This document shows positions 29,091 to 64,000 of a DNA stretch of 64,000 nucleotides, piece after piece (the first letter of the stretch is position 1; each line of letters starts with the position of its first letter). The stretch spans positions 3,906,001-3,970,000 of the forward strand of contig CM097888.1 of NCBI GenBank assembly GCA_044892525.1, given 5' to 3'. This stretch comes from Schmidtea polychroa. Taxonomy: Eukaryota. The position numbers and the translations under genes are program-made. The notes under the pieces are model-generated. The model did no database searches. It saw only the letters and a program-made list of their open reading frames with translations, and had not been told where the DNA came from.

Positions 29091-29242
29091 AAAATTTTTT
29101 TCAATAGTGCAGTCCATAAAGCGAATGAGAAAACGCGGAAATATTGGCTTTAACTCTTAATATAAAAACACTTATTATAGGCTGTAGAAAGTGTTTTGTT
29201 AGTATTTGATTGCATATCCATAGTTTCGAATGGTTATGATGA

Positions 29243-30025: not shown

Positions 30026-30747
30026 CTGATACCACTCCCAAATAGTAACTGATTGACAATTTTTTAATGTAAGTAGAATATGCTGTGGTAGATTCTCCTT
30101 TCCATCTTCCCCATCCAAATGTTCTATCGGATAATAAGCAATACCCCTCTGCCTCCTTGAAAGTGTCAGCAGCGGCTTATGCTTGATTTCCCATTGATGT
30201 GCTAGTTTATGATCGTTTTATAATCTTTTAAATAATATCACGCTTTTTCCACATGCCTGCAATTTGTTAAATAACTACAAACAAAAATATTACACTTGTA
30301 ATCAAACATGTCTTTGTATAGGCGTGCTTAATCCCACATGTAGAAATTTATCATTAATAAAAAAAATTGTTGTTATTGCTGTTATTGTTTTGATTAGTGA
30401 GTAAATAAATAAATAAACTTATCTTTAGTAAATCCTACCAATATTATTTTACGTATTATTGCACATTGATTTTGGGTTGCCCTGGGACAGTTCTGTGGCA
30501 GACGAACAGGTTAGAATTATTTAGGGTTCCAGAATGAAATTAAATAAAATATCAATATTCGCACATTTACAATTATCAGAAAAATACCTCCCAATCTGTC
30601 AATTGATTTAGCATCGCTTTACTTATTTATTTTTTTTAAATTCACAAAATTTATTTTCAAAAACACTTCTAGAACAGCAACCTTTAAAACAACTAGAAAA
30701 ATTCGATAAATTCCAGCAAAAAATATAATCTTTTAACTTACACTGCT

Positions 30748-37525: not shown

Positions 37526-39164
37526 TATTTGTCTCTGTAAATTCTTATCTGTTGTGAGTGGATTTATGTAAGTTGATAAAATATTTGATTAGGTTTTATC
37601 AACCAGCAATTTAGGGGATAAATTAATGATCGTTTTTATACAAAACTGAAACAATCATCACTAATTACTCCGACCAATGATAGCTGAGCTACTATTTCTT
37701 TACGTCTAATCTTATCTACTTCAAATGTCCGTCGAATTACCTTCAGATGTTAATTCAAATTTGTTGATTAATTGTAGGAACATAAGACCAATATTTAAAA
37801 TATATTCTTAAGAAAATCTAATTATTCCTTATCCCGTATATTAGCTGATAACCTGCGTATTCTAAGATTCCCTATAATATTATATTTGCATATTTCTTGT
37901 ACCACCGTTTGCAGCTTGTACCATTCTAACCTGGTTTTTCCTGTCAATTCAGTCATTGTTGTTGATGGATGGATCCCGAATGTCATATAGAGCATTAATC
38001 CAAATAATCAAATATTGTAGTTGGAAGTATCAATCATGTCCTACTAAAATTTTACGACTTTAGATATCCCATATTTCCGTGTATTGATCACTTCGATTTC
38101 TGCTCGCTACTTAAGTAATGGATTTATGAATTGATTGTCTTTAATTGTCTTTCTGAAGTAGTTGCATTTTTAATTAAATTTTATATTCTATAAAATATGA
38201 GTTTTATAAATTTTCCTCTTTTTATCGATTTGCACTCAATTTTCTGTGTATTTCAATTTCTTTTGCACCACTCTAAACGAACCCCAACAATAGCTTTCAC
38301 CTTAAAGCCATTTGAAATAAAGTTACATCTTTTTCTTCTGAATTGCGCGCTTTGATTGGTATTTTTCTGGGTTGACAGTTTCATCTATAATTTCAAATTC
38401 AGCAAGGCAATCATATAATATGTGTTGATCCATAAATTTTGTACAAGAATGTGCACTGAATAAAATAATTCGTGGACATATCACGATGTGTTATTGTAAA
38501 TAAGTGTAAACTGGTTAACAATAGCCATAAATTAGAAGAAGGCGAGCGTGACATGTGATAGTGAAATTTCAAATATTCTTGACGCGCGAGACGATCGGGT
38601 TCAAGGGGAATAAATGTACTGAAGTATTCCGAATTATTGTTCTTTAATGTTATTGTCATTAAAAGTCGTTAAATTATTAAATTATGAAAATATTAATTAA
38701 ACAAAATACCGGAAGATCTTTCAATTTGGTAATGTATAAATGAAGAATTAAAAAACAACATCAAATAATAACATTAGTTCACAAAATGTTTATTTACATT
38801 GTCACAGGAAAACGTAATCAAACATCAATCATAATTTTTTCTTTATCTTTACGCTAAACTCTAGCCTCATCATCCAAAATAGAAAAGGTTTTCTAATGCT
38901 TGTTTTAGAATTTCAATTTGGATATTGGCGATTTTGATGAATCCGTTATTGATTGCAGGAATAAAATCGATTATTTCACTCGCAGCAAACTGAAATTATT
39001 CCGGGAATTCACAAACTAGCCGTCGCGTTTCTGTCGCATTTGAAATCAGTTTTAAAATTTGTCCTCAAATAATTCCATCAACTTTTTTTAAAAGTCCTTT
39101 CATAAAACTCCATAAATTCATTAATATTTAATAATTTAATAGATTAAATAAAATCCTGAATAGA

Positions 39165-39610
39165 TTCATTAAGATATATATTACACTTATATATTACATT
39201 GTTCTGGCTGGATAACTAGCACCACGCTCTGCTACCAGTTTGATTTAAGTAAACCCAAAAAAAGAGAATTTGTAAAGAGAATCTTTATAACAGGATGAAA
39301 ATCTTTAATTTAACACGATCTATATTCATTAAGATATATATTACACTTATAAATTACCTTGTTCTGGCTGGATAACTAGTACCACGCTCTGCTACCAGTT
39401 TGATTTGAGTAAACCAAAAATAGAGAATTTGTAAAGAGAATCTTTAGAAAAGGATGAAAATCTTTAATTTAATACGATCTATATTCATTAAGATATATAT
39501 TACACTTATATATTACCTTGTTCTGACTGGATAGCCACAACCACGCTCTGCTACCAGTTTGATTTGAGTAAACCCAAAAAAGAGAATTTGTAAAGAGAAT
39601 CTTTAGAACA
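39165..39610 (-). repeat. Three tandem ~159-bp units, each resembling exon plus intron
   Basis: Period of about 159 bp; minus strand ...AACAAG|gtaat...aag|ATTCTC... Confidence 0.8.
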
Positions 39611-42600
39611 AGAACTTCGGAAATTTTATTAAAAATGGAACAAAATAAACATCTATGTCCTGATGATATATTAAGAACAGGAACTTCAGGATTTAATTTA
39701 ATCTATTAAATATTTAATAATTTTATAGATTAAATAAATAAAAAACATTGTTAAAGATTTTAAAAAGAAATTATTTTTATTGTTTTAATTTATAATTATT
39801 TTAACGAGTAATTAATTTCAAGGTTTTTTGGTATTTTTATAAAATTATTTCCATACAATGTAAATCATATCTAATTTCAACTATAAATAAATAAAGTAAA
39901 TGCCAAAAGAAAGTAAAATTTATTATAAAGCCATTATGACATCATTATCTATCTAAGACGATGTCTTCTAATATTAAAATTCTATCTTTTATGGATACGT
40001 TATCTTCTCTATGTTCTTCAATATCTTTTCTAAGATCTTCAATATCTTCTCTAACAGCTTGAAAGCCGCATAAAATTTTAATTATGTTAATAATTTAAAT
40101 GAAAATTTTTAATTTATTACGATCCACTTTTGCAAACAAATTCTTTAAAATCCGCATTATGTAGGATCACTTACAGCTGGTGGCAATATCCTCTGCTCTA
40201 AATGATTTTAAACAATAAAATTACCCTGCTAGTGCTTCGGAAGCCGGTTATTGAATTTTTTTCCGCGCCGACTATTGTGCATAGGCGATTGAGCGCGGGA
40301 AAAAATAGAATTTCAAATGAATGGTTCATGGTGCAATCGTTTGCAGCTGGATGCACATGGAGTTGAGTTCATTTGTAAAATTTGTTGAAAGGTTTCACAA
40401 TGTGGGCAATACATTTTTAAAAAAATGAAAATAAAACAAAATTAAAAGTTGAAATTGAAAAATTAAAGATCATCTAACAATTCATCAAAACTGCATTAAA
40501 ATTTTAAGTAAAGAATTTTTGAAAAATTAATTTGAAATAATGTTTATGAAAATTAGTAATTTATAATTTAAAATTTTTAAATTTGATTATTAGAAAGAGA
40601 AGGGGGGTAGGGGTAATCTCATGTCCAGCAACAGAGGGGATGATCACATATCCATCAATATGATGAGGCTGGTGATATCACCGAGTTGCTCAGTGATTCC
40701 CAAAGTGTGGGTGATGAAAGGAAACGTGCCAAAAGCAGGTTCGGGTCTCAATCATTGCTGTACGCAGTTGGAGTATCCCTTATGAACTTTGTCAGCACAT
40801 TCACTCAACATATAACATGTAAAACGCAAAAAGAATATTTAAAATTATTGTAAAACATTAAATAAAACAAAATTAAAAATAAGTAAAACCAAAAATAATA
40901 AAATTAGGAAAAAGCAAGAAGTTGCACATGAAACACATTATAAAAAGCATTAAAACAAAGAATAAATTGCCGAAAAAAGACACAACGGCAGAAAATACCA
41001 TTCTTATCCATAGGATACCATATGATAAGAATGGTATGTAAAATCGATCAATCAGATTAAATTAAAACAAATAAAGAAATCAACCAATCAAAATTATTGG
41101 AATTTGAAATCAAAAAAGAAAATAAATCACGATCAAAAATACACATGATCGATCCTGATCGAACACAAGCACAGCAAAACTATATAAAGGGCCGTCTCAG
41201 TAGACACTTCAACACTTTTGTAAAATATTTAAAACGCTTGTAAAACTAATTTCAGTATTTCTATCGCTTTAATTAAAATTCTCAAACCGGTTTTTGTAAT
41301 AATCCAATTATTTTTTCAAACTTCGTATAACTTTAAAACGGATTGTTAAAAATTCCTTATCAGTTGTCAACTTTCAACGGAATCGTTCGATTATACGTCC
41401 AATTGTACTACTCGATGAATTTCGTATTTATACCTGGACTAGTGATTGTGTTTTCCTGAACTTTTTAAATTCTCAGATTCGGGGATTCCCGAATCTGTAA
41501 TCAATTTTGTTTCTCGAGATTAAAAATTTTATTCTCGGCGATTCTCGAAAAACTCTAATTTTAGAGAAAATTGTCTAGTCAAAGCAATACGTGTTATTAA
41601 GAAAAATAAAATTAAATGAGCCAGAATAAATCATGCAAAATGAAAACAACAAATTATATTCATTGTATTACAGGTATACAGTAGCAATATTTAGCTGTAC
41701 CTTTACTTGTTTTTATTTTGTGGAATATATTAAAATCGCTAAAAAGTTATTATAGCAACTGATGTACTACAAAGTATATAATAACTCATCATCAAATTCA
41801 AACATAGAATGACTGGATGAAATTATAACATAATACAAATTATAATTTTTTGATTTTATTTAAAATTTGAGTTTAGTTTAGGTAATAAAACAATATTAAA
41901 GAAAAATAAATTTACTTTTTTAAAATTCCAAATTCCGATTATATATCGTAAATCCCGAAATATGATTATTATTACTATGGTATACTCACTGTAAATTTTG
42001 TTATTAAAATTAAAACTTTAATCAAAAATTTTTTCATTCTCCCTTTTTGACTATACAAATTTAATTTTACTCAGGATTTTATGTATTTAGTTATGTTTTG
42101 ATGGAGGCCTCTAAACCTTTTATTGATTATCATAAATATAGTTCACTAGGTACTTATTTTTGTCAGCAAGTCGGTGAAAGCTTCATGAAAGCTCGCTGAT
42201 AAGAGAAGGTTTCGATCCTACAGCAGATGATCGTGCTGGAGTCATAATTTAGGACTACGTGCGATCATTTAGTACCACATCCTACAGCTGGGATCGAAGC
42301 TAGGTAAGGTGAAATAGGATCTAGGGAGTAACATTTCGACGCCGTGCTTGCTAGGAGTAGCAGCTTCGTATGGTTTATAGAAATTCTACTGTTATTTTCA
42401 TAATCACCAGAAAAACTCCATAGTTCCATCAAGCAAGGTCTAACCTACTATTCCACCGTACATAGTTCGATTTAATAGTAAAGCACATCCAGAAAATTTC
42501 CCGACTCATTTGCTTGATTAATCTTTGTCTTTCAAACCATAATCCCGTTATCTATTATAACAAAGGTAGAGAGTTAAGAATTTAACGTCATAAATGCCTA

Positions 42601-49000: not shown

Positions 49001-49990
49001 ACGATTAGGTTAAGCAAAACACTAGGCATAATTGAATGAACAACTGAATAATTTTAAATTTGCTGTATAGTACAAGAGTACATTTAACATTGTAAAATGC
49101 ATTCAACAACGATGTGTTTTTGCATGTAATTCAGCAAAGTAAAATACTGACTATTAATACATGAAGAGAACAAAGATTGCATAATTACATCTCGACTGGT
49201 GAGTAATAGCTGACTTTTTGTCTCAAAAATGAAAAACAAATATAAACATAAACAGAAGAGAATTAGCAAAGAATGTCTAATAAATTCAATAAAATACCAA
49301 TAAATAAGTAACACTTAAATAGGTTAATCATCCATACTCTCTCAGTCACTGCTATATAAGAAACCAATAACCAATTTTCTTGCCGTCGATGGCTAAATTG
49401 AAACTAACTAATCAAAATCTAGGAGGAACAATTCATTAGGCATATCAGAGCGGATATTAATTTTAAAATGCCTGAAAAATTTTTTAATAACATTCATAGC
49501 ACCGGGCAGAGCTCGGATTTGCCAGAATATCCACAAAATAGAGCATGGCCGGAGAAAATTATTATTAATATATCACATATTAAAAATTTTTTCTGCAGGA
49601 AAGGCTCGCCATCCAAGGGTATCTCACAGGATTGGACCAGCGTCAGAGCCTTCTGAAGAATCCGGACTCCAGCAATGCTGTGTACGTCAGCAAAGCCATC
49701 AGTGGTGAAGTAGGTCGCTCTACCTACATGGACAGGAGAGCCCTAGCCCTGCTGGAGAGGATGAATCAACTATGCTGGATAAAACTCTTTTATATGGATG
49801 TTGATTTAATATATAATGTATTTAATAGAACAGGAAATCCAAAAAGCACTGACGAATGCGGGAGAAGCTGGAGCCGGATAATCCGTCTCTCTGGAACCAA
49901 ACAAACTGATTCCACTAGATACATCACTAGTGTCCTGCTGGAAGCAAATGACCATAGCCAGGAAGGAAGCCCTCAAACTCCTCTCTTCAA

Positions 49991-51224
49991 TTGCCAGGAA
50001 AACAGGAGGACCTGGACATAAACAGGCGAGATTATTTAGATTTCCCTTTTATTAATTTAAATAATAATCATAATAATAACTTATATAATAAAAATTACAA
50101 TAATATAGAGCATCTTTCCTTCCAAGCCCAAAAACCAGTTAATGATGTTACCACCCCTGATCAAGACGAAAATGAATACAGGAAAATTGTTGATAGTTTT
50201 ATAAATCCTACCCTGCAATATATGCCTATTGACAGGGGAGGTAAATTTTCTAATTCAGATAAGCCCAGCTATAGGGATGCTCTCCTTGGAGCCAATTCAT
50301 CGCATAATAAGCTCCCCCAGGGAAAATCTGCCTTTATACCTTCAATAAAAAATAATAATAAACCGATAGCAAACCATCAAAGAAATACACTCAAAGACTT
50401 TGAATCCTATAATAATTCAAAAAATCTAATTCATAAAGATGCTAAAGCTACCTTCAATAACAACAATACCTATCATAAATCTCTTTCTCTACCTACGAAT
50501 ACCTTGAACTCTAAAACGAATTATTATAATAATTATACCCCAAATTTTTATCAATATAATTTAAAAGTAAATTCAAATATTTATAATTACCCAAAAACAA
50601 ATGAAATAAATAATGATAACTCATATAATNNNNNNNNNNNNNNNNNNNNNNNNNNNNNNNNNNNNNNNNNNNNNNNNNNNNNNNNNNNNNNNNNNNNNNN
50701 NNNNNNNNNNNNNNNNNNNNNNNNNNNNNNNNNNNNNNNNNNNNNNNNNNNNNNNNNNNNNNNNNNNNNNNNNNNNNNNNNNNNNNNNNNNNNNNNNNNN
50801 NNNNNNNNNNNNNNNNNNNNNNNNNNNNNNNNNNNNNNNNNNNNNNNNNATTTAAACCCTAATAATTCTAATTACTCACATTCCAATAAATTAAATGAGA
50901 ATGATCCAAACTATAATCTAAATACTATCTCTAACAATAATAACTTTAAAACCTTTAATCTAAATAATACAAATTATTATAATTCAAATTCTAAATATAA
51001 TAATTTAAATGCTAATTTTAATTACTCACAATCCAATAATTTAAATAAAGATAACACAAATTATAATTCAAATAATAATAATTTTAACTCCAAATTCAAT
51101 AAAATAAAAAATAACTATGAAATCCCTAATAATAAAATTACCTTAGACTACTTAGAAAACTTAATTAATTCCAACAATAATAAATTAATTTTAAATATTG
51201 AAAATAGCATAAATAAATATTTGT

Positions 51225-51303
<79 letters not shown>

Positions 51304-51628
51304 GACTAAGACTAATGATTCTGCCAATATCAATGATCATAAGATAATTAACTCTGATATAGAGAACTGTATACCCACCGACCCCTGCCATGAAGTATCT
51401 ATTATCCTTCCGTCTAGATGTCGACCCTCTCCTCTCGATGATACACCATCATCCTTCCATCTTATCTGTGGTCAGAGACCCGCATCCTGTGATCTTGACT
51501 GTACCCCTCGCCTGATCCTAAATAGTACTTCCAATCTTTTCTCTGATTCCCAAGCCACCCCCACCCACCCCCGCACCCCGCTCGTCGAACCCGAAACGAG
51601 TCTCAAACCTCTGACTTTGATGACATAG
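49991..51628 (+). CDS. Asn-rich low-complexity N-terminal region of the non-LTR element (spans gap 50630-50849)
   Basis: 545-codon open frame including an in-frame (AAT)n run; no recognisable domain. Confidence 0.4.
51227..51303. repeat. (AAT)n microsatellite, about 25 units
   Basis: Directly visible. Confidence 0.98.
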
Positions 51629-52069
51629 TACTCTCAGATAACTCTACCACCTCCTCTCATTCACCCATAACAACTGCCCTCCAAATCTCAACCCCAACCC
51701 CCACTGCCCCAATAAGCATCACCAAGCAAACAATAGCTCCCAATAAGGAAGATACTGCCCTTCTCGATGAGGCGCAAGGCCTCCTACGTTTGGACTCACA
51801 AATGGACGTCCAAGGAAAAATAATTAAAATTGTAACAGACCAAATCCCCCAACCCACACCAGACTTTCTCACCCCTAAACGCCTCAAAAAGCTAGTTAAA
51901 AAACGTAACACCACGACCCCAAAAACTGACTCTGAACGCCTTCAAAATTATACTACCCTATACTTCCTTGACACAGAGGCAAATGCAGATGCAGACCCAA
52001 CTTCAAAATCCCACTCTGCGTCTCAATTTCCATCTCCTTATATGATAGAGCCGCCCTAATCAGCCATGC

Positions 52070-52682
52070 CCAAGAAGTCCATAACATCATCTATGACCAA
52101 GAATCCCTGATCGACTGCTATCAATGCAGACCAAAGTTTGGAGGAATAGGAAAATTTGATATGAACCTCTTCCGCTTTAGAGATATTATTAACCATATTG
52201 ACCACTTTGACCACCAGATACAAACTGACCGTAAGCTGCTTAAACGCGTTAGTACCAGGATTGCCCCATCCAACAAAACAGTCTGCCACATCTATAACAA
52301 AACCTGTGCCAGATGTTTGATCCACCATGACCCTAACTCTTCCTTAAAGACCATCACACAACACATGGCTAAATCACACAAAAAATATACATATGACCCC
52401 AACGAAGAAATATACTGCTTCTGTGGCCTATGGATACCCTTCACGAACATCCAAGACCATATTAACTCCATGCACCCGCTCCCATACTCCCACGTCTTCA
52501 CTAAACCTCCACCGTCCGCCGAATGCAGTATTGAAATCCATGACCTGAATAACGAGAACCTTCTTGGCCCACTGCTAGAAACCCAAGAAAGCATGTTCCA
52601 CATTTCTGATAGTGAAACTACCAAACGACCACTGCCAGATGATCTACTTTTCACACCCAACATTGACAACGAATCCGCATGA
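52070..52682 (+). pseudogene. Zinc-finger region of the non-LTR polyprotein
   Basis: CYQC...HIDHFDH, CARC...HMAKSH, CFC...HINSMH. Confidence 0.7.
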
Positions 52683-53130
52683 TGGTCACAACATGCAATT
52701 AAAGCATACATCTTCTCTTTTGCCATGAAAAAATCAACTATCTTCGTTGACCCTTTCATCGGAAACGCCCTCATCCAACATAACTATAAAACTTTCTTCT
52801 CAACCTTCCCCTTCCTTGAATTCGCAGAGTGGAATGAAATCATCATACCCATGTCCAATGGACAAAATAACTGGTTCTTCTTCTTCCTCGATAAAAAAAC
52901 AAAAACTTGCAGTACTTATCGACCCATTAATTGACACCAGCCTTCTGACACACTCAAAACTCGCCAATAGCCTACTTGAAACCATCCTCGACCTTCAGAA
53001 AATTGTTTTACCCATATCCATCGACTTGAAAGAACCCGAATACCCTCGTTGCAGTGCCCCTGCAGACTCAGCTTTCTTCATCTGTCACTTCATTGAACAC
53101 CTCATCACACGACACCCCCTCACCACACCC
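52683..53130 (+). pseudogene. Ulp1/SENP-like (C48) cysteine protease domain with substituted catalytic His and Cys
   Basis: WSQHAIKAY...VDPF...EIIIPMSNGQNNWFFFFLD...(frameshift) IDPL...YPRCSAPADSAFFICHFIEHL, against the consensus WLxDxxIxxY...IIIPI..G.HW.L..ID...YDSL...QxNxxDCGxFxC. Confidence 0.65.
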
Positions 53131-53299
53131 CACATTCCTTCTATGACCCTTGAACTTAAAACAATTATTAATAATTATATTAAAAATAAAATACCAAATA
53201 ATGATATACGTAAATATAAACAGTTTATAAAGAATATAATTTTTAATCTCATCGAAAACAAAACTGACGCCGACTCTGCTATCTCCGAAATGGAAAAAA

Positions 53300-55635
53300 T
53301 AAATGCAAACATTCACCCTTTAAAATATATCACCAAAAAGCCCTCTGACATAATACATAAAAAAACCGTAATGAGAATGAATTACTTTTCATTAAAAGGA
53401 AAAAATACACCATTAACCCAAAGGAGGAAGTCGCCAAGATCCTGAGAAATACCCCATCCTTCCAGAGACCGACTATGGATAATATTCTGAAACTCTTTGC
53501 TGGAACACTCACAAGTTGCTCACCTAATCCTTTGATCAAACTACCCTCACTTCCCGAAACTCTTTCATGTGACCCCTTTGACACTGATGAAATTAAGGCA
53601 ATCTTCAAGCAACTCAGCAATACGGTCCCAGGTATGGATGGCATCTCTTTATCTGACTGGAGAATTCTATCACCTGACTTCGAATTCCTCCTATCCTTGT
53701 TTAACAACCTACTGCACACAACTACTTGCCCTATGTCCTGGAAAACTTTTCGCTCCAAACTAATTCTAAAAGCTGGAAAGGCCGAGACTAGCCACGAAGC
53801 TAGCTCCTAGAGACCCATATCTATCATGAACACCTCATACCGTATATTCTCCTCACTTCTTAACAACCGCCTTCTGAACTGGATAAAACTCGGCAACCTA
53901 CTGTCTAACAACCAAAGAGCTATATGTGCACCCGATGGATGTGCTGAACACAATTTCACCTTACACCTTGTCAAAGATGCTGCAATCCGCAATAAAACTG
54001 ACCTCCATATCATATGGCTCGATATCTCAGATGCTTTTGGATCTTTACCTCACTCTCTTATATGGCACACTCTTACCAATATGGGACTCAACCCAAATAC
54101 AATCAAACTTATAAATGACATGTATAACGATGTGCAAACTATTTTTGAATGTGAAGGAGAACGTTCCCCATCTGTCCCCATTGTAAAAGGAGTTAAGCAA
54201 GGCTGCCCCTTATCTATGACAATCTTTTGCCTATGTATAGACTTCATACTTCAACATGTCCTATTCCATGGGCACAACATTAGCATCCTTGCCTATGCCG
54301 ATGATATTGTACTAATTTCGGACTCGTACTACTCAATAAACCTTGCACTTTGCGAAACGACACAACTGGCTTCACAAGTTAACCTTCGATTTAAGCTTTC
54401 GAAATCTGGATACTTTCATATCAACCATGATGACAATTATAGCCCAATCCGCCTTTATGACGAACTCCTCCCAGAATTGATGACTCTAACCTCTACCGAT
54501 ACCTTGGAGTTGATTTCACGTATAAGGTAAGACACAACATTGAGGAGAGACTTGAAAATGCCCTAACTGATACCAAAACAATTCTGGCCTCCCATCAGCA
54601 CCCTGCCCAAAAACTTAATGCCTACAAAATATTAATATATTCTCGCCTTACCTATATCTACCGCAACTGCGAGATCCACCACAGTATACTCGAATCCGAA
54701 AGAAACCTGAAAAATAATGCAGGTTTACCCCATAGGGGCGCCACCCAAAGACTAAAAACCATAATCAAAAATGCCATTGGCGATAAAATTTGTGAGCTCA
54801 ACAACAACTTCCTATATGCATCTATCAAACTTGGAGGACTGGGTTTAACATCCCTCATTGATGAATACCTTATCCAGGGAATTGTCCACCTCATACATGC
54901 CCTCAACTCAACTGACACTGATTTTCGCAACCTCGTCTTATCCGAACTCAGTCACGCCAGAGGAAATGGCAACATCAACTCTGCAATCTCGTGGTTAAAT
55001 GGCGACTCCACTAAAACCTTTCCATTCAAATCTCTCTTCTCAAAATTCAGGAAATCATCCATAAGACTGCGACTCAAATATGGGATCTCTACTAAAATAG
55101 TCTTCCTCAAAAATTCCTACCAATTAGAAATTAAATACAAAGACCGAATTAATTACTTCACATCCTCCAACCTTAAAGATACCTCATCTGAAATACACTC
55201 TATTATTAGCCTCATTTATGCCGATAGATGGTCCGAAATGAAATGCCAAGGACATATAGCCAAAAGCATCGGTAGCAGTAGCATTGCTAGTTTTTTCTTT
55301 AAAACGGACATTCTAACTGACCCGCGATTTATCTTCCTGATCCGAGCGCGCAACAACATCCTAAAATTAAACTATACACCCCGTCGAAATAAATCTAAGA
55401 AATCTACCCTATGTAGGCACTGTCACGCTCATCCTGAAACACAAGCACACATTTAACCACTGCCCTGCTAAATCCAATGCCCGCCGAAACAAACATAGAA
55501 ATGTCCTCCAAGCTGTCTCTGACTTCCTCCTCGAACATAAATACGATATAGACATCGAACAAACCCCAATGGGCATCAACACCACCCTCATCCCTTACCT
55601 CCTTATCAAAACCCCGCGGAATAAATTGATACATA
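53300..55635 (+). pseudogene. RT, CCHC knuckle and partial restriction-like endonuclease
   Basis: Motifs as listed for the element; several stops and frameshifts; ends abruptly at the gypsy LTR. Confidence 0.88.
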
Positions 55636-56731
55636 TGTTAGGTTCGATGGGTAGGTAGTCGAACTAACACAAAAACGTTCTATCTGACTCCAATAAATAC
55701 TTTATGCGTATAGGTAATAAATAAGAAATATGTTTTAAATATTTATTTATCAATAAAAAGTTAGTTACACGTTTAAATATAGTTACACCACGCTGCCTTT
55801 TTCTAAGTAAAGAAAACGGTTATTCAAACCGCCCTGAAGAATATTTCTACGAATCAAGGCTGGCCCTAAATGCGCCAACAGCCCGATATAGGTGTAAGTA
55901 AAAGAAGCAGGGTAGTTCACCAAATTTTACGCTATAGAGTCAACCCAGAAATTGGTTAACTCTTTAAATTATATTTGAAACGAAACAGCTACAAAAAATA
56001 TGTGCTGACGTTGCAATCCCTTTTAATATTAATTTAAATAAATGAAATTATTTATATGTATATATATATTTCAAATCAAAAATACTAACTAATTAATTAT
56101 TCCAACAAGGGCCAGATAAACCACAGATTGGTTGTCGAACTGGCTACTAATATTTCTTCCTTTTGCTTTAATTAATACTCCAATAGATATTGGAGTTACG
56201 ATATTATATAGATGATGCGAAAAATCCTGATAAAAATATCCTTTGGTTCCGAAGAATTTCGTGATAAATATAATTCCAGTAATTAATTTCTTGGTCGATA
56301 TTCCTAAGGAAATTTCTTGATTCAATAGACAAAATGAAATTTCCCAAAATTTTAGGTTAAATTCTAAATGTCAAGAATGCCGAATTAAAATGATCTGATC
56401 GTATCTATTTATAACTATGGGGATTCTCTTCTGATTTTTCTTGTCTCTAATTTCTTCTCCTCCCGTAATCTAATTTTTAACTAGTATTTATATAAATTTT
56501 ATTTCCATAATTCTATTAATAGTAATTGTTTAATTACTATTTTTATTATATATTTTAAATAATTTCTATAGTTCTATTTTTAGTAATTATTTATTACTAA
56601 TTATATTTTAGTTTTAATTTTAGTATTTAATTTCTATTTTCGGTAATTTTTTATTACTATTTTTGTTATACTTCTAATTAATTATTATTTAATTTCGAAC
56701 CTTCAATTCCGGTTCCTACTGAACCCCAACA
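55636..56731 (-). repeat. 3' LTR of the gypsy element, about 1.1 kb
   Basis: Minus strand starts TGTTGGGGTTC directly after the polypurine tract TTAGGGGGAAGACA (56732-56745) and ends GAACCTAACA, giving inverted termini. Confidence 0.85.
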
Positions 56732-57031: not shown

Positions 57032-59098
57032 CTAGTATTTTCTCCTTTTCATGACCTTGGCACTTTCGTTACGGATCCTTTGTTCTACAATGTCAGGTCT
57101 GTAACTGACCACCAAAGTCTCCCGTGTACTTACCTCTTTGTACACAATTGAGGAGATAATGTACAAGCCCTCATTAGCCTCCAATACTCCGTAATCGGGG
57201 AAATTGGATACGGCTACTTCATGGATTGGGCCTCCGTCGTATTCCTTGATACGCGGTTTCCATTTGCTGTCGGGTCTCTGCCACCAACTAGGATCTTCTC
57301 TGTCGAGATCTTCCCGTATTTTAATTGAATTGCCCCTTCCGACGAACTCGCCTTCCTTTATGATAATAGGCTCTCCTGAAATCGTGGGTTCACTCTTTGT
57401 TGCCAATATCTTGGTCAACGCAGGATCTGGTGGCTGATAGTGGGTTTCTAGGAGATCGTCATCCTCATCTTGGATGGATATCCTAGGCATCTTCTTTTTC
57501 GTGCTCTTAGGAATCTCCGTTTTCCTCTTTGTAGAGGTAGGAACATTTTTCTCCTTGTCCTCTTTCTGGGGGGGTTTCTCCGTTGGTCTCTTTTTAAACT
57601 TCAAGTCTTGTAGCTTGAGTAATGGTGCCACCGCTTGGGGTAATGTTCCCCCTTCAGCTCCTTGTTTGGGTTCACCCAACGGGGCCAATGCTTTCAGGAT
57701 CTTGGTGACCCGTTCAACTAACTTTTCTGCTGGCTGGGGTTTTTCTACTTCCATTTTAGCCGAATTCACCACTCTACCGTCATTGGTAAGGGTGACTTGG
57801 AGGCAGTTATCGTCTGCACTCTCACAAGTGGCATAGTCGTCTTCATCAGCGATTGAAATGGCTGGCGGCGACAAGGAATCTTCTTCCACTATTTTCAACA
57901 ACTTCGTCCTGGGGATATCTTCTTTCACATAGCTCTCCATAGCTAGTGGTTTCTGCCTGCTTGAGGTACCGGGTTCCACCTCTTTCCGGGTGTCCGGTGA
58001 AATGTCGTCGACCCAGATGTCCCGTAGATTATCGTAAATCTCCTTGATGGTAGTTACATCATTCTCCGTTTGAAGATCCGAGAAGTGATGTGCTTCTTTA
58101 CCGGTGACTGCCTTTGCCAAATATGCCAAACGGTAATACCCGTTGCATTTCTTTAGGTCCCTACTTTCGAGACATTTAGCTGCGCCTAACTCACGGATTC
58201 CGAGAGCGCGCTGCATTGGGAATCTAATAACTTCTAGTAGGTCCTTAACTAGCAATCCCACGATGATTTTCCCATCGCAGATTTTCCTGATTCGTTCGGC
58301 ACAGTCTTCTCCGTCGAACTGTCCTATTATTTCTTTCTCGGTCATACCATGCGCATGCGATTGGTAATGTTTGACCTGTGCTCTGGGGGTGACTCTCGTG
58401 TTGAGTATCAAATCGCCATTGAAATGTAAGATTGAAATGGCCACGATTGCCGGTTTCAGGAATTGTCGTAGTGTAGCATAGTGAGCTGCTACGAAAATGG
58501 TGAGGTTATCCTCTTGTCTAGGGTCCAAACGCTGTCTAACACAGGACTTAAATGTTTTAATGTCGTTATCGTTGACATTATATGTCCAGTTTGGGTCATT
58601 AACCCATCTTGTTTGTGCTTCTCTGTGGGGTTCCAGGATTTCCATTGCTATGATGGTATCTATACCTTCACATAACAGTGAGATGTTCTTTTCCCTTCCG
58701 TCCCCGTTTTCTATTTCGAGGGTAGTGTGCTTTTGTAGCAAAATAGGGTTTGTGGCGCCAGGAACGTAAACCGTAATTGGTTTGTTAATGGCGTGTATCC
58801 ACAGGTGGTTGGTCAGACTATGTCTACCAAACTCAGGCATGACCTCGGTAAGCCTAATACTACCGTTATGCTTACCCGGGATTCTGGAGATAATCATTTG
58901 ACACTTTGGAGCCTCGTCAAATTTGAAATTATTGGGTATGCCTGAACAATGACCGTAAAACCAGTGCCTTTGGCCTTTTCTACCTAGCTCCATAACCTGC
59001 TTCTCCAGGTTCTTGTAAATGAGTTTTTCTTTTAGTAAGGTTGTAGCACGTATAATGCTATGCCTTCCTTGGTATTGGGATATTGGATGGCTCTGCAT
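57032..59098 (-). CDS. Gypsy ORF3: REX4/ISG20-like DEDDh exonuclease-fold domain (catalytically altered), disordered charged region with a basic NLS-like patch, small C-terminal domain
   Basis: IVAISILHFNGDLILNTRVTP..QVKHYQSHAHGMTEKEI...IRKICDGKIIVGLLVKDLL...GIRELG...YRLAYLAKAVTG...ENDVTTIKEIY...W at about 58012-58505. The likely start is ATG 59098 after the acceptor tttttatttcag; the ORF track starts at 59170. Confidence 0.7.
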   Translation of the reverse strand: MQSHPISQYQGRHSIIRATTLLKEKLIYKNLEKQVMELGRKGQRHWFYGHCSGIPNNFKFDEAPKCQMIISRIPGKHNGSIRLTEVMPEFGRHSLTNHLWIHAINKPITVYVPGATNPILLQKHTTLEIENGDGREKNISLLCEGIDTIIAMEILEPHREAQTRWVNDPNWTYNVNDNDIKTFKSCVRQRLDPRQEDNLTIFVAAHYATLRQFLKPAIVAISILHFNGDLILNTRVTPRAQVKHYQSHAHGMTEKEIIGQFDGEDCAERIRKICDGKIIVGLLVKDLLEVIRFPMQRALGIRELGAAKCLESRDLKKCNGYYRLAYLAKAVTGKEAHHFSDLQTENDVTTIKEIYDNLRDIWVDDISPDTRKEVEPGTSSRQKPLAMESYVKEDIPRTKLLKIVEEDSLSPPAISIADEDDYATCESADDNCLQVTLTNDGRVVNSAKMEVEKPQPAEKLVERVTKILKALAPLGEPKQGAEGGTLPQAVAPLLKLQDLKFKKRPTEKPPQKEDKEKNVPTSTKRKTEIPKSTKKKMPRISIQDEDDDLLETHYQPPDPALTKILATKSEPTISGEPIIIKEGEFVGRGNSIKIREDLDREDPSWWQRPDSKWKPRIKEYDGGPIHEVAVSNFPDYGVLEANEGLYIISSIVYKEVSTRETLVVSYRPDIVEQRIRNESAKVMKRRKY

Positions 59099-59296
59099 TC
59101 CTGAAATAAAAATCATTAACCATAATATCAGATATACTGATATGCCATAATAGGCTAAAAAGATATGCATAAGTCTTATAATAAAAGATCTACATATGCT
59201 GAATTTTAATGCTACCTGGAGCTCTACGTAAATATAGATTTTAAGATATATATAAATGGTTATATATGATTTTTCCCTCGGGGGAGTCTGTAATTG

Positions 59297-62068
59297 TCAT
59301 AATTGCGACATCAGTACTCCATCGTAAACCCTTATGGCTTGTCTAAAATATAGCTTGGTCCAAATACCCATAGCTATCAATGTAGTTATTAGTGATAATA
59401 CAGCCGATACCGTAATCCATACCCCTACGGGTATTTTCAGGATATATCCTGCATTGAAGTTTGTGATGGCATTACAATCACAACAGTTTGTCATGTTTGG
59501 GGGCGTTTGACAAGATATTTGTTTAATGGGTGACAACTGTTTAAGATGTTGCCACATTGCGGGATGTATCACCATGTTCTCCCTGACTACTTTTGGTGGT
59601 GTTTCTGTTACAACTGGGTGTTTCAGAGGTAATATCTCCTCAAATACCTCGAACCACCTATCGTCCTGTCGTTTCCTCGGATAATAGTATATAACATGAA
59701 CCGAATATTCTACTGACTGATTTAGATACATTTCTTGGGAGGGAGAGTTCTGGTCTAACCATAATGTTCCTCTCGTGGTTGATCCGTCTCGAATGCTGAT
59801 TTTCACTTTCTCCTCCCTGTTAATTTGCTGGCTAAATTTTACTTTCTCCTTCTCATAGGATATCGATATGCGATTTGTGAAATCTGCCGTCCGTAGGATC
59901 CAATTTGATACGTGATAGGTATACCAACCATTCCGATATAACCGTGACGCTGCGACATGCAGTTTATAATCCGTCTCGGCTTTTAAATCATATAAATCCC
60001 ACTCTTTTTCTTCTGAATCGAGTTGGCGGATCCGCAAGTACCTGTTGTAGAAATGTAAATTGAACTTTGTAACATTATCGCACGTCGTGAGTATGCTAAT
60101 TCCGTGGTATGTCCTTATAAAATGTAAATACTCTACTTGCATCGCCATAGGCTGAAAATATGCCTTTCTATCCCTTTTTGCCATTGCTAAAGTCATCATA
60201 CAGCTTATTATCAACAAAAAGGTTACCGATTTTGGAACACCCCGTGATCTCAATGGGTATCGGTGCTCTTGTGGTTCTTCGGTAGTGTTTAGTTTCACTT
60301 GTTTCTCTGGTGCTTTTACTTTTGAATCTCCCGTGGTTCCTTTTGTTGAGATTTCGCACCTTTTACACCGATTAGCATGCACCATTATTGGTTCTGCTTT
60401 TCTGTTGGCTATTAGTTGTAATATGAGGTTTGTATCTGTGGTTCTCAATACCTCGTATGGCCCTTTGAAATTTCGCATGAGTTTTGGTGATAAGCCTTTC
60501 TTGTTATAATGACTTTCCAACATCACCTGGTCTCCAACCAATATGCCATGATCCTTGGCTTTTCGGTCATGATAATCTTTGGATGCCTCCTGATTATATT
60601 TTATACTGAGACCTGCTCTAGCCCATGCTTCCTGCATTCTTTCCCTCATTTCCATTAGATAATCTTCCTGATCTAAATACTGTATTGCTTTAGGGAAAAA
60701 CAACAGATCTACTGGCATTTTACTTTGCCTTAGGTACATTAGGTAAAATGGCGTTTCACCTGTTCCCTCGTGTACTGCATTCCTGTATGCAAATAAACAG
60801 GATGGAATGTGGATGTCCCAATCCGTTTGCCCTGAATTTATATATGATGCTAACATATTAGCTAATGTTCCATTAAATCGCTCTACTAGGCCATCTGTCT
60901 GTGGGTGATATGGGGAAGTGTTCAACTTTAGAACTCCGAAATAATCATTTATTCCTTTGAGCAAATTACTCATGAAATCAGCTCCTCGATCTGTTAATAG
61001 CTTCGTAGGTACTCCATACCTAAAGACAATTTGTTCAACGAAAATTCTAGCTATTGTATCAGCTTTGTGGTTAGGCATCGGGTAGGCCTCTGGCCACTTA
61101 GTCAAGTAGTCGCAGAAAACTAATATGTACTTGTTTCCGCTATTAGATTCTTTGAATGGCCCCAACACGTCCATTACCGTCATTTCCATAGGTGTAGATG
61201 GTACTGGCATCGGCTTCATCGGTACGTGTGGTTTCTTTCCGGTATTTCTTCTGGTGATACAGATCTTACATGTCTGACACCAGGTTTTAACATCTTGTTT
61301 CATACCGGGCCAAAAATATTTTTGTTTTAACCTCGACAATGTTTTTCTAGATGACAGGTGGCCTCCTAAGGCTCCATCGTGATACTGCAACATGAGTGCT
61401 TCACGGTATTTCTTAGGAACCATTATAACGTTATCTCGTATATCTGAATATTTAACTAATCCCTCTTCCAGCACAAATTTATCTTTATTCTTTTCCCAGT
61501 ATTTCGTGAATTCTGTGGGCACGTATTTCGCTTCTAAGGCTTGTCGAATGGCATTGATTTCTTCATCAGCTTTTTGTGCCTCCATTAAATCAGCTAGCCG
61601 GTTGGCTTCTCGAGTCAGTGTGAAGATAGTCCCTTCGAGACGTCCTTCCTTCACATCTTCTGCTTCCTCCTCCTGGTCCATTCTCGATAAAGCGTCTGCA
61701 TTTCCATTATGATCTCCTTTTCTATAATGGATTTCTATGTCATATGGCTGTAAAATTAATGCCCATCTGACCAGTTTTGATGTATCCATTGTGTGTTTCG
61801 TCAGCCACTGTAATGGTCTATGATCGGTATACACTATGATCTTTCGACCCCATAGATAGGTCCTAAACTGGGTTATAGCATATACAATTGCTAAAGCCTC
61901 TAGTTCTATCACTGCGTAGTTTCTCTCGTGTGGTTTTAGCCCTCTGCTAGCGTACGCAATTGCATACTCATCTCCTAGGTCATCTCTCTGACCTAGCACA
62001 GCACCTATGCCCCGAGTGCTGGCATCTGTCATAACCAAAAATTGTCTCTCAAAATCTGGGAATCGCAA
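59297..62068 (-). CDS. pol: Gypsy RNase H plus integrase fused in frame to a signal peptide, FN3-like ectodomain and TM helix
   Basis: TDAS, ELEALA, TDHRPL, NADALSR; HHCC, MDVLGP, TDRG, ERFN, GPY; then RYPLRSR, VTFLLIISCMMTLAMA, WDLYDLKAETDYKLHVAA, VWITVSAVLSLITTLIAMGIW. Confidence 0.9.
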   Translation of the reverse strand: MRFPDFERQFLVMTDASTRGIGAVLGQRDDLGDEYAIAYASRGLKPHERNYAVIELEALAIVYAITQFRTYLWGRKIIVYTDHRPLQWLTKHTMDTSKLVRWALILQPYDIEIHYRKGDHNGNADALSRMDQEEEAEDVKEGRLEGTIFTLTREANRLADLMEAQKADEEINAIRQALEAKYVPTEFTKYWEKNKDKFVLEEGLVKYSDIRDNVIMVPKKYREALMLQYHDGALGGHLSSRKTLSRLKQKYFWPGMKQDVKTWCQTCKICITRRNTGKKPHVPMKPMPVPSTPMEMTVMDVLGPFKESNSGNKYILVFCDYLTKWPEAYPMPNHKADTIARIFVEQIVFRYGVPTKLLTDRGADFMSNLLKGINDYFGVLKLNTSPYHPQTDGLVERFNGTLANMLASYINSGQTDWDIHIPSCLFAYRNAVHEGTGETPFYLMYLRQSKMPVDLLFFPKAIQYLDQEDYLMEMRERMQEAWARAGLSIKYNQEASKDYHDRKAKDHGILVGDQVMLESHYNKKGLSPKLMRNFKGPYEVLRTTDTNLILQLIANRKAEPIMVHANRCKRCEISTKGTTGDSKVKAPEKQVKLNTTEEPQEHRYPLRSRGVPKSVTFLLIISCMMTLAMAKRDRKAYFQPMAMQVEYLHFIRTYHGISILTTCDNVTKFNLHFYNRYLRIRQLDSEEKEWDLYDLKAETDYKLHVAASRLYRNGWYTYHVSNWILRTADFTNRISISYEKEKVKFSQQINREEKVKISIRDGSTTRGTLWLDQNSPSQEMYLNQSVEYSVHVIYYYPRKRQDDRWFEVFEEILPLKHPVVTETPPKVVRENMVIHPAMWQHLKQLSPIKQISCQTPPNMTNCCDCNAITNFNAGYILKIPVGVWITVSAVLSLITTLIAMGIWTKLYFRQAIRVYDGVLMSQL

Positions 62069-62086
62069 TATAGGTGGCTTGATGAG

Positions 62087-62803
62087 TCATTCCTTGAGCA
62101 TATCAAATGCTTCTTGCTGTTCTGTTCCCCACACAAATTTGACATTTTTGCCTTCTAACTGCGTGAGTGGGAAAGCTATAACCGAAAAGTTTCTAATGAA
62201 TTTTCTGTAGTATCCAACTAGACCTAAAAACCCTTTGATATGTTTAACGGTTTTAGGCTCCGGAAAATTCTTAACCTTTTCAACATTAGCTGGATCGGGT
62301 TTAACCCCGTCTCGTGATATGATATGGCCAACATATACCAATTCTGGTTCAGCCCATTTACATTTGGTTGGTTTCACTTTCATGTTGGCATTGATCAACC
62401 TCTTGAACACATCTTCCAAATGTTCCAAGTGTTTTTCCAAATCTGGCGAGAATACTATGACGTCGTCAATGTATACCATCGCATGATGTACATCCATGAG
62501 CATCAAATTCATTGCTCTTTGAAATGTGGCTGGAGCTCCGGTGAGTCCAAATGGCATTACGTTATATTCGTAATGGCCCATACTCGTAGAAAATGCTGTT
62601 ATTGGTATAGTCTCATCTTTTAGCTTAATTTGATAAAATCCCTTTTGAGCGTCCATTACTGAGAAGAACCTAGCATTCCTCATGCGTCCATAGATATAAT
62701 CTAACAATGGCAATGGATGGCTATCTTTGCATGTTGCTTCGTTAACCATGCGATAGTCGTTACATAATCGTACTGATCCATCCTTCTTGGCCACCACTAT
62801 CAT
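62087..62803 (-). pseudogene. pol: Gypsy reverse transcriptase (in frame with RNase H across one TGA; frameshifted from protease)
   Basis: KKDGSVRLCNDYR, DSHPLP, GHYEYNVMPFGL, VYIDDVIVF, GFLGLVGYYRKFI. Confidence 0.95.
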
Positions 62804-63963
62804 TGGTGACTGACATGGTGATTTACTATGTCTGATGATAACATCAATTTCACCTGTTTATCTACTGATTCCTCCAGACTGAATGGAATACGGTATGGTC
62901 TCAACTTTATAGGTTTTGTATTGGTGAGAACAATCTCATGTTCTAACAGGTTTGTTTTTCCCAGATCGTATTCATGTTTCGCGAATACCTGGTCATATTT
63001 CCTCAACAGCATATTTACTTGAATGTTCTCCTTTCTGGTTAGCACTTTGCTATTTGCTGTAGGAGCATCATAGTACTCAATGTCTGGATCTCTTTCTTCT
63101 GCCTTTACAGTGAGTATCGACCCTTCTCTCGTGGCTTGTGGTTCGTTTTGTTTCCAGATTCTGCCCACTCTGGTATCTGGATATAAGTATAGTGGTTTAA
63201 TGTCCAGATTGGCTACCCTGATTGGTATTCTACCATTGACTATTAAACCCACGCTATGCGTAACTGGTATATTGTATTTCTCCGAAAATCTTTCGTCTGG
63301 TTCGAATACAACTTCCCCTTCCCAATTATTGCTTGTAGCTACAAAGCATACTGTTTCTGCTCTGGGTGGTATGATAGTTGTATGATCTATATAAGCTGTA
63401 TCATCGTTGTAAATTTTTCTCTTTTTACCTCGTGCTCGGATTAACAATCCAGATGCACAATCGAATACTACTCCTCGTAGTCTTTTTAGAACGTCCATAC
63501 CCAATAGACATTCGGCTGGGAGACTTCTCATCACTATGATGTCGTGATGGAGCTCCTGGTCACATAGCTTAATCTGGCAGGATAATGACCCTATTACGTT
63601 TAATGATGATCCGTTTGCTCCTGTTAATTTTACTCCTGCCGGTTTTAGCGACTGCAGTTCATGATGGTTTAACAATTTAGCTTCTATTATGGTACCGTCT
63701 GCTCCTGAGTCTATCACCGCATTAACTGTATGTCGGTTCACTCTTATTTTTATCATTGGCTTTTTATCCAAGTTCACTGGGTTGTTGACCATCAAGATAG
63801 TATCGTGCGAGATACCGATTGTATTTGCTCTCGTTTGTTCTGCTTCCAGTAATTCAGGATCACTCAGTTGAGGATTATACTCTTTAAATTTTGCTTTAAT
63901 TGACTCTAACGCTTCCTTTGGATAGTGCACTTTAGGTAATTCTGGCAATGTTGAGCATGTCAA
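62800..63963 (-). CDS. Gag C-terminal region plus aspartic protease and RT N-terminus (continues beyond the window)
   Basis: AVIDSGADGT, CLLGMDVL, dUTPase-like/spacer region, DLGKT..LEHEI...PIKLRPYRIP. Confidence 0.9.
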   Translation of the reverse strand: MTCSTLPELPKVHYPKEALESIKAKFKEYNPQLSDPELLEAEQTRANTIGISHDTILMVNNPVNLDKKPMIKIRVNRHTVNAVIDSGADGTIIEAKLLNHHELQSLKPAGVKLTGANGSSLNVIGSLSCQIKLCDQELHHDIIVMRSLPAECLLGMDVLKRLRGVVFDCASGLLIRARGKKRKIYNDDTAYIDHTTIIPPRAETVCFVATSNNWEGEVVFEPDERFSEKYNIPVTHSVGLIVNGRIPIRVANLDIKPLYLYPDTRVGRIWKQNEPQATREGSILTVKAEERDPDIEYYDAPTANSKVLTRKENIQVNMLLRKYDQVFAKHEYDLGKTNLLEHEIVLTNTKPIKLRPYRIPFSLEESVDKQVKLMLSSDIVNHHVSHQ

Positions 63964-64000
63964 ATTATTAAATATGGTATCTTCACCGATTTTCCATTGG

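Follow-up and report, generated by a model that had tools for sequence, protein, structure and literature searches.

A Ty3/gypsy retrotransposon of Schmidtea polychroa raises the question of what protein is specified by a reading frame that runs on, uninterrupted, beyond the end of its integrase, and whether that protein takes the place of an envelope glycoprotein or accompanies one. The earlier note on the window (the whole 64,000-nucleotide stretch of DNA that was analysed) chose the first answer, describing a fibronectin type III (FN3)-like membrane protein fused to integrase "instead of a classical env". The element in its entirety gives the second.

The element is a 14.9-kb LTR retrotransposon with the PR-RT-RNase H-IN order, an LTR pair, a target-site duplication, a PBS and a PPT. 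Its features within the window are all on the minus strand. The 3' LTR (55636..56731) and the 5' LTR, which lies beyond the window (L031:5441-6537 of the flanking stretch), match at 99.8% identity over 1097 bases, and the target-site duplication is of 4 bases. In the window copy, Pol (60263..64000; protease, RT, RNase H and integrase by Pfam) carries two lesions, a frameshift near 62800-62857 and a stop codon at 62089-62087. Its protease frame continues past the window's end into Env, a mononegavirus/gB-type fusion glycoprotein located 0-2.4 kb farther on (L031:3-2402 of the flanking stretch, minus strand). This Env, between Gag and protease, matches Pfam PF24664 at E 5.7e-88 and PF06208 at E 0.0017, and has signal-like and transmembrane (TM) segments of its own at ORF1 residues ~1032 and ~1600. 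(PDB sequence searches gave no match for Env or for the Gag-Env spacer.) Env had been thought absent because the window cuts the element off before it. Since the element possesses a full fusogen, the extension is a second surface protein beside Env.

Gag, Env, Pol and extension constitute a single frame of 3366-3369 codons in unbroken copies. In the window copy the RNase H-integrase-extension part is a 929-aa open reading frame (62086-59297). The integrase ends at an RYPLRSR motif (60242..60262), which has counterparts at the equivalent position in families A2, B and E (the window element being of family A), and 314 open codons follow in the same frame, in agreement with the roughly 310 estimated earlier. 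The extension (P0001) opens with a predicted internal signal peptide (residues 13-28; 60179..60226), a hydrophobic segment whose Kyte-Doolittle mean peaks at 2.35 over residues 13-27. It is likely to be used from inside the polyprotein, because the linker ahead of the hydrophobic core contains no Met. There follow a predicted FN3 domain 1 (residues 29-125; 59888..60178), a predicted Ig-like/FN3 β-sandwich, domain 2 (residues 126-213; 59624..59887), a Pro/Thr stalk (59423..59623) with a membrane-proximal four-Cys cluster (59512-59474) of which three cysteines align in family A2, a predicted TM helix (residues 281-301; 59360..59422) and a 20-residue cytoplasmic tail (59300..59359) that is conserved in family A2. 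The TM hydropathy peak begins at residue 279 (mean 2.06), and AlphaFold2 also models a helix there (block pLDDT 63-86). These coordinates were derived by hand from the window translation and landmarks. Sequons are located at N63, N181 and N256, and cysteines at positions 21, 61, 251, 260, 261 and 263. The earlier note's signal-like stretch, internal to a frame shared with integrase, and its stalk, Cys cluster, TM segment, tail and three sequons were all found where it had placed them. Hydropathy, sequons and conservation are all consistent with the prediction of a type I membrane glycoprotein. The hydrophobic segments of ORF1 at residues 1032, 1600, 3061 and 3331 are consistent with a two-pass topology. 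ORF1 has further hydrophobic segments, a weak one at residue 1638 (past the Env TM segment) and one at residue 642, which could alter the topology.

Several lines of evidence, each of them weak, converge on the assignment of the extension to the FN3 fold. For domain 1, the top matches in the ESM Atlas (which compares language-model features) are fn3 at 0.95 (recognition 2551), and a multi-family profile finds PDB 9y2f_C at E 0.038, with monobodies next. Domain 1 also carries the strand E-F Leu/Tyr signature of FN3, and that Leu and Tyr are the sole invariant columns across all seven domain 1 rows, from five families. On the other hand, the score of domain 1 against Pfam fn3 (PF00041) is 12.1 bits (E 0.24) and that of the family E module 13.3-14.9 bits, both below the curated 25-bit cut-off; AlphaFold2 leaves domain 1 unfolded (pLDDT <50); and the strand-B tryptophan is absent in family A (by eye, it is present in families B and C). 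Domain 2 is modelled by AlphaFold2 as a sandwich (block pLDDT 52-89). FN3 ranks first for this model in Foldseek (an FN3 monobody, E 1.6e-3) and in VIA (fibronectin, Z 8.7, rmsd 2.4, 80 aligned), but glycosidase Ig domains (Z 8.3-8.4 in VIA) and C2 domains are on a par with it. The AlphaFold2 model of the family B ectodomain has a pLDDT of 39. On balance the FN3/Ig-like module proposed earlier is supported, as a predicted fold.

The Atlas look-alikes of the extension are cytokine-receptor-type and small FN3-TM proteins (IL11RA, FNDC5), names that reflect shared fold only. At E<=0.001 the extension has no sequence homologue among database proteins of similar length, among longer ones or among 1.84 billion representatives, and the family E module has none in its protein-database search. 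PDB sequence searches yielded one irrelevant Fab match for the extension and nothing useful for the family E module or for domain 2 of families B and C. In keeping with the view that the extension is not itself a known fusogen, a Pfam scan finds no fusogen match; the viral fold search gave poor matches (query TM <0.25; one bunyavirus glycoprotein row at rmsd 30.9), but rests on a half-folded model. Capture of the module from a host receptor is plausible. The genome carries ordinary fn3 exons (90 matches listed), searches of it with the extension find only apparent element copies among the matches listed, and no host donor was found among these genome matches or in the protein databases.

The open frame of the extension is not a matter of chance, because the genome holds at least 137 matches to it, most of them full-length and 88-97% identical. 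From integrase core to extension stop, 22 of the 39 copies examined are free of indels and stops. The three sequons, C61, C251, C263 and the FN3-position residues L93 and Y99 are invariant in 41/41 rows. Shared variants in the extension (66 N:101 S) give a pN/pS of 0.17 (p 1.7e-28 against neutrality), so that the extension is under purifying selection, and the earlier expectation that sister copies would keep it, and keep it non-neutrally, was borne out. By segment, pN/pS is 0.12 for domain 1 and 0.22 for both domain 2 and the stalk; constraint is tightest on TM helix and tail (1 N:10 S). Integrase and Env are at 0.03-0.04, and Env, at 14 N:104 S, is under stronger selection; the extension evolves faster than the fusogen (0.17 vs 0.04, Fisher p 2e-7). 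Since its pN/pS is well below 1, this faster change may reflect relaxed constraint and not an arms race. Between families A and A2 the extension is 41-43% identical, RNase H-integrase 85%, three pieces of Env 71-80% and two other, frame-broken Env pieces 47-48%. ORF2 (considered below), at 38-54%, has diverged as much as the extension, and the 3' block may for that reason have been swapped by recombination.

In each of the seven env-bearing families sampled, Pol terminates in a signal-ectodomain-TM module, signal-like segment included, and the architecture is kept across families that are 46-88% identical in integrase. Module searches in three families returned >100 matches each. The module looks FN3-like in five of the seven families, with one to three domains (by eye, one in family E, two in A and A2, three in B and C). 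Homology of the family A module to those of B and C is marginal (by hhalign, domain 1 has P 0.3 and domain 2 has P 0.013), and none of six pairings of window domain 1 with B/C domains reached p<0.05 against shuffles. The integrases of three other gypsy families end without a hydrophobic segment (19 rows of 30 loci, counted where the frame runs 200 or more residues from the integrase core; the comparison covered the integrase ends). The seven env-bearing families form one integrase clade (support 100/99), and the coupling of Env with the module is consequently a single evolutionary observation. To the same clade belong the Burro-like families of this genome, which carry IAP, TRAF and ankyrin modules and whose ORF1 ends in signal, ectodomain and TM segment after the ankyrin repeats.

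Downstream of the extension, the ORF1 stop (59291..59299) is a candidate for leaky termination, in that it conforms to the TMV-type readthrough consensus stop-CAR-YYA (as given in PMC2194720). The same nine letters recur in 40/40 distinct copies and in the two copies of A2; this TMV/SIRE1-type context, with an in-frame ORF beyond it, occurs in families A and A2 only. The 198-nt spacer between ORF1 and ORF2 (59099..59296) is open and in frame, ending in a splice-acceptor-like site. It is open in 35/40 distinct copies and in 13/3000 dinucleotide shuffles, but its pN/pS is 1.15 on 9 N:2 S. ORF2 (57032..59098; 688 aa from its ATG, pN/pS 0.10) contains an ISG20-like DEDDh-fold segment (phmmer match to ISG20L2, E 0.009) that by eye is without the first catalytic motif, and has homologues in families A2, C and E. 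Element sequence is present in four contig runs (two of them presumed RNA), in which no splice joint was discernible.

The reading that we favour, with a probability of about one half, is that the extension is a second protein, predicted to be an FN3-type membrane glycoprotein, that would be released by signal peptidase and serve Env as a partner in attachment or tropism. One polyprotein would cross the ER membrane twice and generate a fusogen and a fast-evolving accessory glycoprotein. In order, Gag would be cytosolic, signal 1 would lead the Env ectodomain into the lumen, and the Env TM segment would return Pol to the cytosol; beyond Pol, signal 2 would place the FN3 domains in the lumen, followed by TM segment and tail. 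Signal peptidase would free both glycoproteins, in equal amounts, and a protease of the element or an intramembrane protease would separate integrase from the signal remnant. At the surface of the particle or of the producer cell, the FN3 protein would bind a host surface molecule and Env would execute fusion. Variable domain number is the usual pattern for receptor-binding or host-facing proteins, and herpesvirus gB requires separate receptor-binding partners. Rhabdovirus G and baculovirus GP64, also class III fusogens, bind receptors without a partner, which counts against an attachment partner. A predicted complex of the Env and extension ectodomains (median 0.31 vs a mark of 0.34, controls 0.00) is evidence neither way. 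More tentatively, these families, as a clade of planarian-type endogenous retroviruses, might have a two-component entry machinery of the kind known in herpes- and paramyxoviruses, in which an ancient gB-type fusogen and an FN3 attachment protein of cellular origin, acquired separately, are both cut from one multi-pass Gag-Env-Pol-FN3 polyprotein, each family tuning its target cell through FN3 number and sequence; in family A, leaky termination may append the ISG20-like pseudo-nuclease to the tail.

The same protein might instead modulate the host, displayed on the expressing cell as a decoy or mimic that absorbs or imitates a signalling or immune ligand and has no part in entry. We give this about half the weight of the attachment partner. 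The IL11RA and FNDC5 look-alikes suggest it, were it not that these names denote shared fold only; the IAP, TRAF and ankyrin modules of the Burro-like relatives and the ISG20-like ORF2 of this family would fit an anti-host toolkit, and fast change of the extension is equally compatible with it. The 20-residue tail, however, has no evident signalling motif, and fusion into the Env-Pol frame links the module to particle production. Distinctly less probable is an assembly anchor that tethers Pol/integrase to the membrane and routes the polyprotein to where particles bud, with the ectodomain as spacer or Env chaperone: constraint is indeed tightest on TM segment and tail, and by eye the family A TM segment resembles that of Burro-like 1, but the Env TM segment already tethers Pol, and predicted folded domains with invariant sequons exceed what an anchor needs. 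A superinfection block, in which the protein occupies or removes a receptor on element-expressing cells and bars re-entry by kin, is improbable. Ectodomains are family-specific and diverge fast among co-resident families, and retroviral Env is known to cause receptor interference; the mechanism overlaps with that of the attachment partner. A functionless captured passenger in an open frame, which the want of a protein-database homologue and the sub-threshold Pfam scores might suggest, is rejected on selection (66 N:101 S), invariant sequons and cysteines, and architecture kept across families. Least credible of all, an FN3 protein serving as sole surface protein accords with the window, where no env is visible, and is refuted by the full, more strongly selected PF24664 fusogen of the same element.

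To our knowledge, descriptions of LTR retroelements usually include no more than one envelope gene. If the attachment reading (or that of a host decoy) is correct, a retroelement has split fusion from attachment or from decoy function, and a second, cell-type surface glycoprotein is kept clade-wide, in a multi-pass polyprotein that resembles those of flaviviruses and has Pol at its centre. At its end, Burro-type ORF1 also appears to specify a membrane protein that had gone unreported, which extends its annotation. In planarians, de-repression of gypsy elements, Burro1 among them, proceeds tissue by tissue (PMC8532177), and the ectodomain might therefore provide a small soluble probe for target cells (stem cells, germline) and cell-to-cell spread.

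No post-integrase signal-ectodomain-TM module was found in the papers searched. Cellular FN3 type I proteins (ELFN/LRR-TM proteins with a juxtamembrane FN3, FNDC5, cytokine receptors) are alike in predicted fold and architecture, but none is a sequence homologue at E<=0.001, and family A is without the strand-B Trp. Small non-Env membrane proteins of gypsy elements include the sORF2/FAST-like proteins of the Drosophila MDG1 group (PMC11952523), and rotifer LTR elements (PMC5408684) have TM-bearing ORF3s as well as DEDD exonuclease ORFs comparable with window ORF2; in the accessible portions of these two papers, sORF2 and ORF3 are separate ORFs replacing Env, with no folded FN3 ectodomain reported. 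The gag-env-pol layout itself is already on record for Burro elements of planarians and for errantiviruses (PMC6431247, PMC13524379). Burro/GYPSM1 (Arkhipova and Yushenova, PMC6431247, section 7) likewise has one huge ORF1, whose gag, env and pol follow in that order in a single frame, but exceeds 30 kb, with a ~4900-aa ORF1 bearing ankyrin, BIR and MATH/TRAF modules; the window element is half that size, has no ankyrin, IAP/BIR or MATH/TRAF match in Pfam and, unlike Burro/GYPSM1, has an ISG20-like ORF2. PMC6431247 names no FN3 and no C-terminal membrane protein. The element is accordingly not a Burro, on size, ORF1 length and module content, and is a relative by integrase tree. Platyhelminth errantiviruses with an HSV/gB-type Env (Chary and Hayashi, PMC13524379) share gag-env-pol order, gB/chuvirus-type Env and a length of ~15 kb. 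By eye, the window Env resembles the Platyhelminthes C1a rows of that paper and, among its segments, is nearest to Smed_errantivirus_4 (similar, not identical), six S. mediterranea elements being listed. That paper describes no second surface protein: the text and seven supplements do not contain "fibronectin", nor the supplements "FN3", and Pol C-termini are, in the portions available, examined for chromodomains only. Atlas virus, a hookworm belpaovirus (bioRxiv 10.1101/2021.11.23.469668), likewise specifies, in its polyprotein, a fusion protein together with a glycoprotein partner, and phlebovirus Gn is the receptor-binding and more variable partner (same source). In Atlas virus a phlebovirus-like, class II Gn-Gc pair lies adjacent, after Pol; in the window element Pol lies between a class III-type Env upstream and a cell-type FN3 protein downstream.

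The reverse-strand frame at 62086-59297 codes for RNase H and integrase, and then for 314 more codons past the RYPLRSR motif (about 310 in the earlier note, which had also described a signal-like segment, two beta-rich segments, a stalk, a Cys cluster, a TM segment, a tail and three sequons, all of them found in place). This extension has at least 137 matches in the genome (781 Mb searched; 133 of 325 candidates scored) and is under selection as protein. Its shared variants (those present in at least two of 41 distinct aligned copies) divide into 66 N and 101 S, for a pN/pS of 0.17 (p = 1.7e-28 against neutrality), the copies being related, so that variants are not fully independent, and the set (5 whole copies, 18 ten-kb stretches mostly picked for long frames, 18 short best-hit loci) being biased to young, intact members. 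Within the extension, pN/pS is 0.12 for domain 1, 0.22 for domain 2, 0.22 for the stalk and 0.03 for the TM segment and tail; elsewhere in the element it is 0.01 for RT, 0.03 for the integrase core, 0.04 for the Env ectodomain and 0.10 for ORF2, the second open reading frame. With 0.17 set against 0.03-0.04, constraint is about five times looser than on Env (Fisher p = 2e-7) and integrase (7e-8). On the sister-copy comparison with RT that the earlier note had proposed (0.17 against 0.01), the extension is kept and is not neutral. The frame from integrase to stop is free of indels and stops in 22 of 39 copies examined, and sequons and key residues are unchanged in 41 of 41.

Protein-database searches with the extension and the family E module found no homologue outside the genome by sequence. 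Domain 1 is very probably FN3: it matches fn3 clusters in the ESM Atlas (0.93-0.95, recognition 2551, with 0.95 attained by about 1 in 100 shuffles), as does, weakly, the whole protein (0.91, recognition 2199), the two results counting as one source of evidence. A domain 1 profile (seven rows, four families) matches PDB 9y2f_C at E 0.038, followed by monobodies. We take 9y2f_C to be ELFN2 and the matched stretch to be its FN3, and an Fn3_ELFN match of the family E module (E 0.069) fits this identity. Domain 2, as modelled by AlphaFold2 without an alignment, is in all likelihood an Ig-like sandwich; FN3 ranks first in Foldseek (E 1.6e-3) and in VIA (Z 8.7, rmsd 2.4, 80 residues), other Ig-like domains being tied in the latter. 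The Pfam fn3 match of domain 1 (E 0.24) is under the cut-off, and the same modelling left this domain unfolded. A fold search with that model gave only poor matches to viral structures.

LTRs of 99.8% identity, flanked by a 4-base target-site duplication, bound the element, which spans ~14.9 kb and is covered by the window together with the stretch directly beyond the window's end (L031). Three lesions disrupt the window copy: the Gag and Env frames are separated by a stop, a frameshift lies at ~62800-62857 and another stop at 62089-62087. Other copies have a single frame, ORF1, of 3366-3369 codons, plus ORF2. The proposal that the extension replaces a classical env fails, because 800 codons between Gag and protease, directly past the window end, match PF24664, a mononegavirus fusion glycoprotein family (E 5.7e-88). 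The ~650 residues between Gag and Env (L031:2406-4400, reverse strand) are also under selection (34 N:60 S); they have no PDB match, and in Pfam only ATP-cone, under the cut-off. Their last part, by eye, we take to be like a Bcl-2 BH1 motif, and it occupies the place of the reported BCL2-like domain in Burro. The primer-binding site (L031:5421-5440, reverse strand) is presumably that of tRNA-Trp. A broken non-LTR-type retroelement (49958-55456, forward strand; an Asn-rich ORF and, by eye, RT-like ORFs) adjoins the 3' LTR, and the window also holds tandem arrays of 15-base (29229-30084), 20-base (1547-1957) and 159-base (39092-39613) units.

Hydrophobic peaks in one natural unbroken ORF1 lie at residues 642, 1032, 1600, 1638, 3061 and 3331. 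If there are internal signals at 1032 and 3061, and stop-transfer helices at 1600 and 3331, then Gag and Pol would be cytosolic, and Env and the FN3 domains lumenal. We infer that signal peptidase would free Env and the FN3 protein as type I glycoproteins and in equal amounts, much as glycoproteins are released from flavi- and bunyavirus polyproteins, and that a signal remnant would stay on integrase until cut off. (We take the integrase-end motif, 60242-60262, reverse strand, to be similar to the nucleosome-binding motif of foamy-virus Gag; it may serve as a chromatin tether.) We favor the FN3 protein as an attachment partner of Env, at a probability of about one half, since it is made together with Env, changes faster and varies in its number of domains; no single one of these points is decisive. 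On the same grounds a host decoy ranks lower and is rather unlikely, an assembly anchor is improbable, and a superinfection block more improbable still.

Genome searches with the extension and Env, and reading downstream, found six further env-bearing families; in one set of 20 stretches, 3 yielded no integrase, several are interrupted by stops and 9 show the full module. A2 has the same two domains as the window's family, A (41-43% identical); by eye, three beta domains are present in both B (at least 108 scored matches) and C; E (at least 150 scored matches) has one (Pfam fn3 E 0.03-0.1); and in two Burro-like families a signal-ectodomain-TM end follows ankyrins and gives no Pfam fn3 match. 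All seven env-bearing families group in an integrase-core tree (support 100/99 with five outgroup rows; 99/98 with five of the seven; subject to long-branch warnings). Nineteen of 30 other integrase loci, with at least 200 residues of frame, represent three families with no hydrophobic segment at the integrase end, a comparison that covers integrase ends alone, whatever those families' env status. The case for homology between the A and B/C modules is marginal: an A/A2 profile scores 9.2 bits on B (a score reached by 1 of 500 shuffles) and 7.9 on C (0 of 500), pairwise domain comparisons reach p < 0.05 in 8 of 24, and hhalign gives P 0.3 for domain 1 and 0.013 for domain 2. Common descent is likely, not proven. 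A2 is a sister family that is older and decayed (85% identity in Pol, only ~40-50% in the extension and ORF2); identity between A and A2 falls sharply just past integrase, which may reflect exchange of the 3' module. ORF1 of the Burro-like families (L060:6480-8000, reverse strand; L193:7360-8403, forward strand) runs through ankyrin repeats and closes with a signal-like stretch, beta-rich repeats that contain Cys, and a TM helix; two of the repeats in the second family have an FN3-like pattern by eye, without a Pfam fn3 match, and TRAF-like and IAP-like ORFs follow in L060.

ORF2 (57032-59098, reverse strand) is predicted to be expressed by recoding, splicing or both. A CAR-YYA readthrough context follows the ORF1 stop in all 40 distinct A copies (52 rows less 12 duplicates, with one further copy without an acceptor match) and in A2, and the TMV-type context is perfect in both families (59299-57032, reverse strand); the CAR-YYA consensus and the in-frame stop of SIRE1 are described in PMC2194720. 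In 35 of the 40, an open frame continuous with that of ORF2 runs through the spacer between ORF1 stop and ORF2; families A and A2 and two copies of E have no stop in it (matched by 13-23 of 3000 shuffles each). The spacer DNA is 71% conserved, against 57-58% for the FN3 domains, and its pN/pS of 1.15 on few variants (9 N:2 S) argues against protein-level constraint. The frame of ORF2 in family E is open from 48 codons upstream of the ORF1 stop and is shifted by one. An acceptor-like site lies upstream of the ORF2 ATG. The product, which is under selection, has an ISG20/ISG20L2-like DEDDh-fold segment (E 0.009 for ISG20L2) in which, by eye, the first catalytic motif is missing; it is a possible antiviral-nuclease mimic.

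The element is of known kind, and its second surface glycoprotein is apparently undescribed: neither FN3 nor a second surface protein in gypsy elements was found in a literature search that included the accessible portions of PMC6431247, PMC13524379 with supplements, PMC5408684 and PMC6338049; FN3 did come up there for domain III of Atlas Gc, in a passage on its topology (bioRxiv 10.1101/2021.11.23.469668). The gag-env-pol order of the window element is shared with planarian Burro (PMC6431247) and with flatworm, nematode and bryozoan errantiviruses bearing a gB-type Env (PMC13524379), and its ISG20L2-like ORF2 has a counterpart in the DEDD exonuclease ORFs of rotifer elements (PMC5408684).
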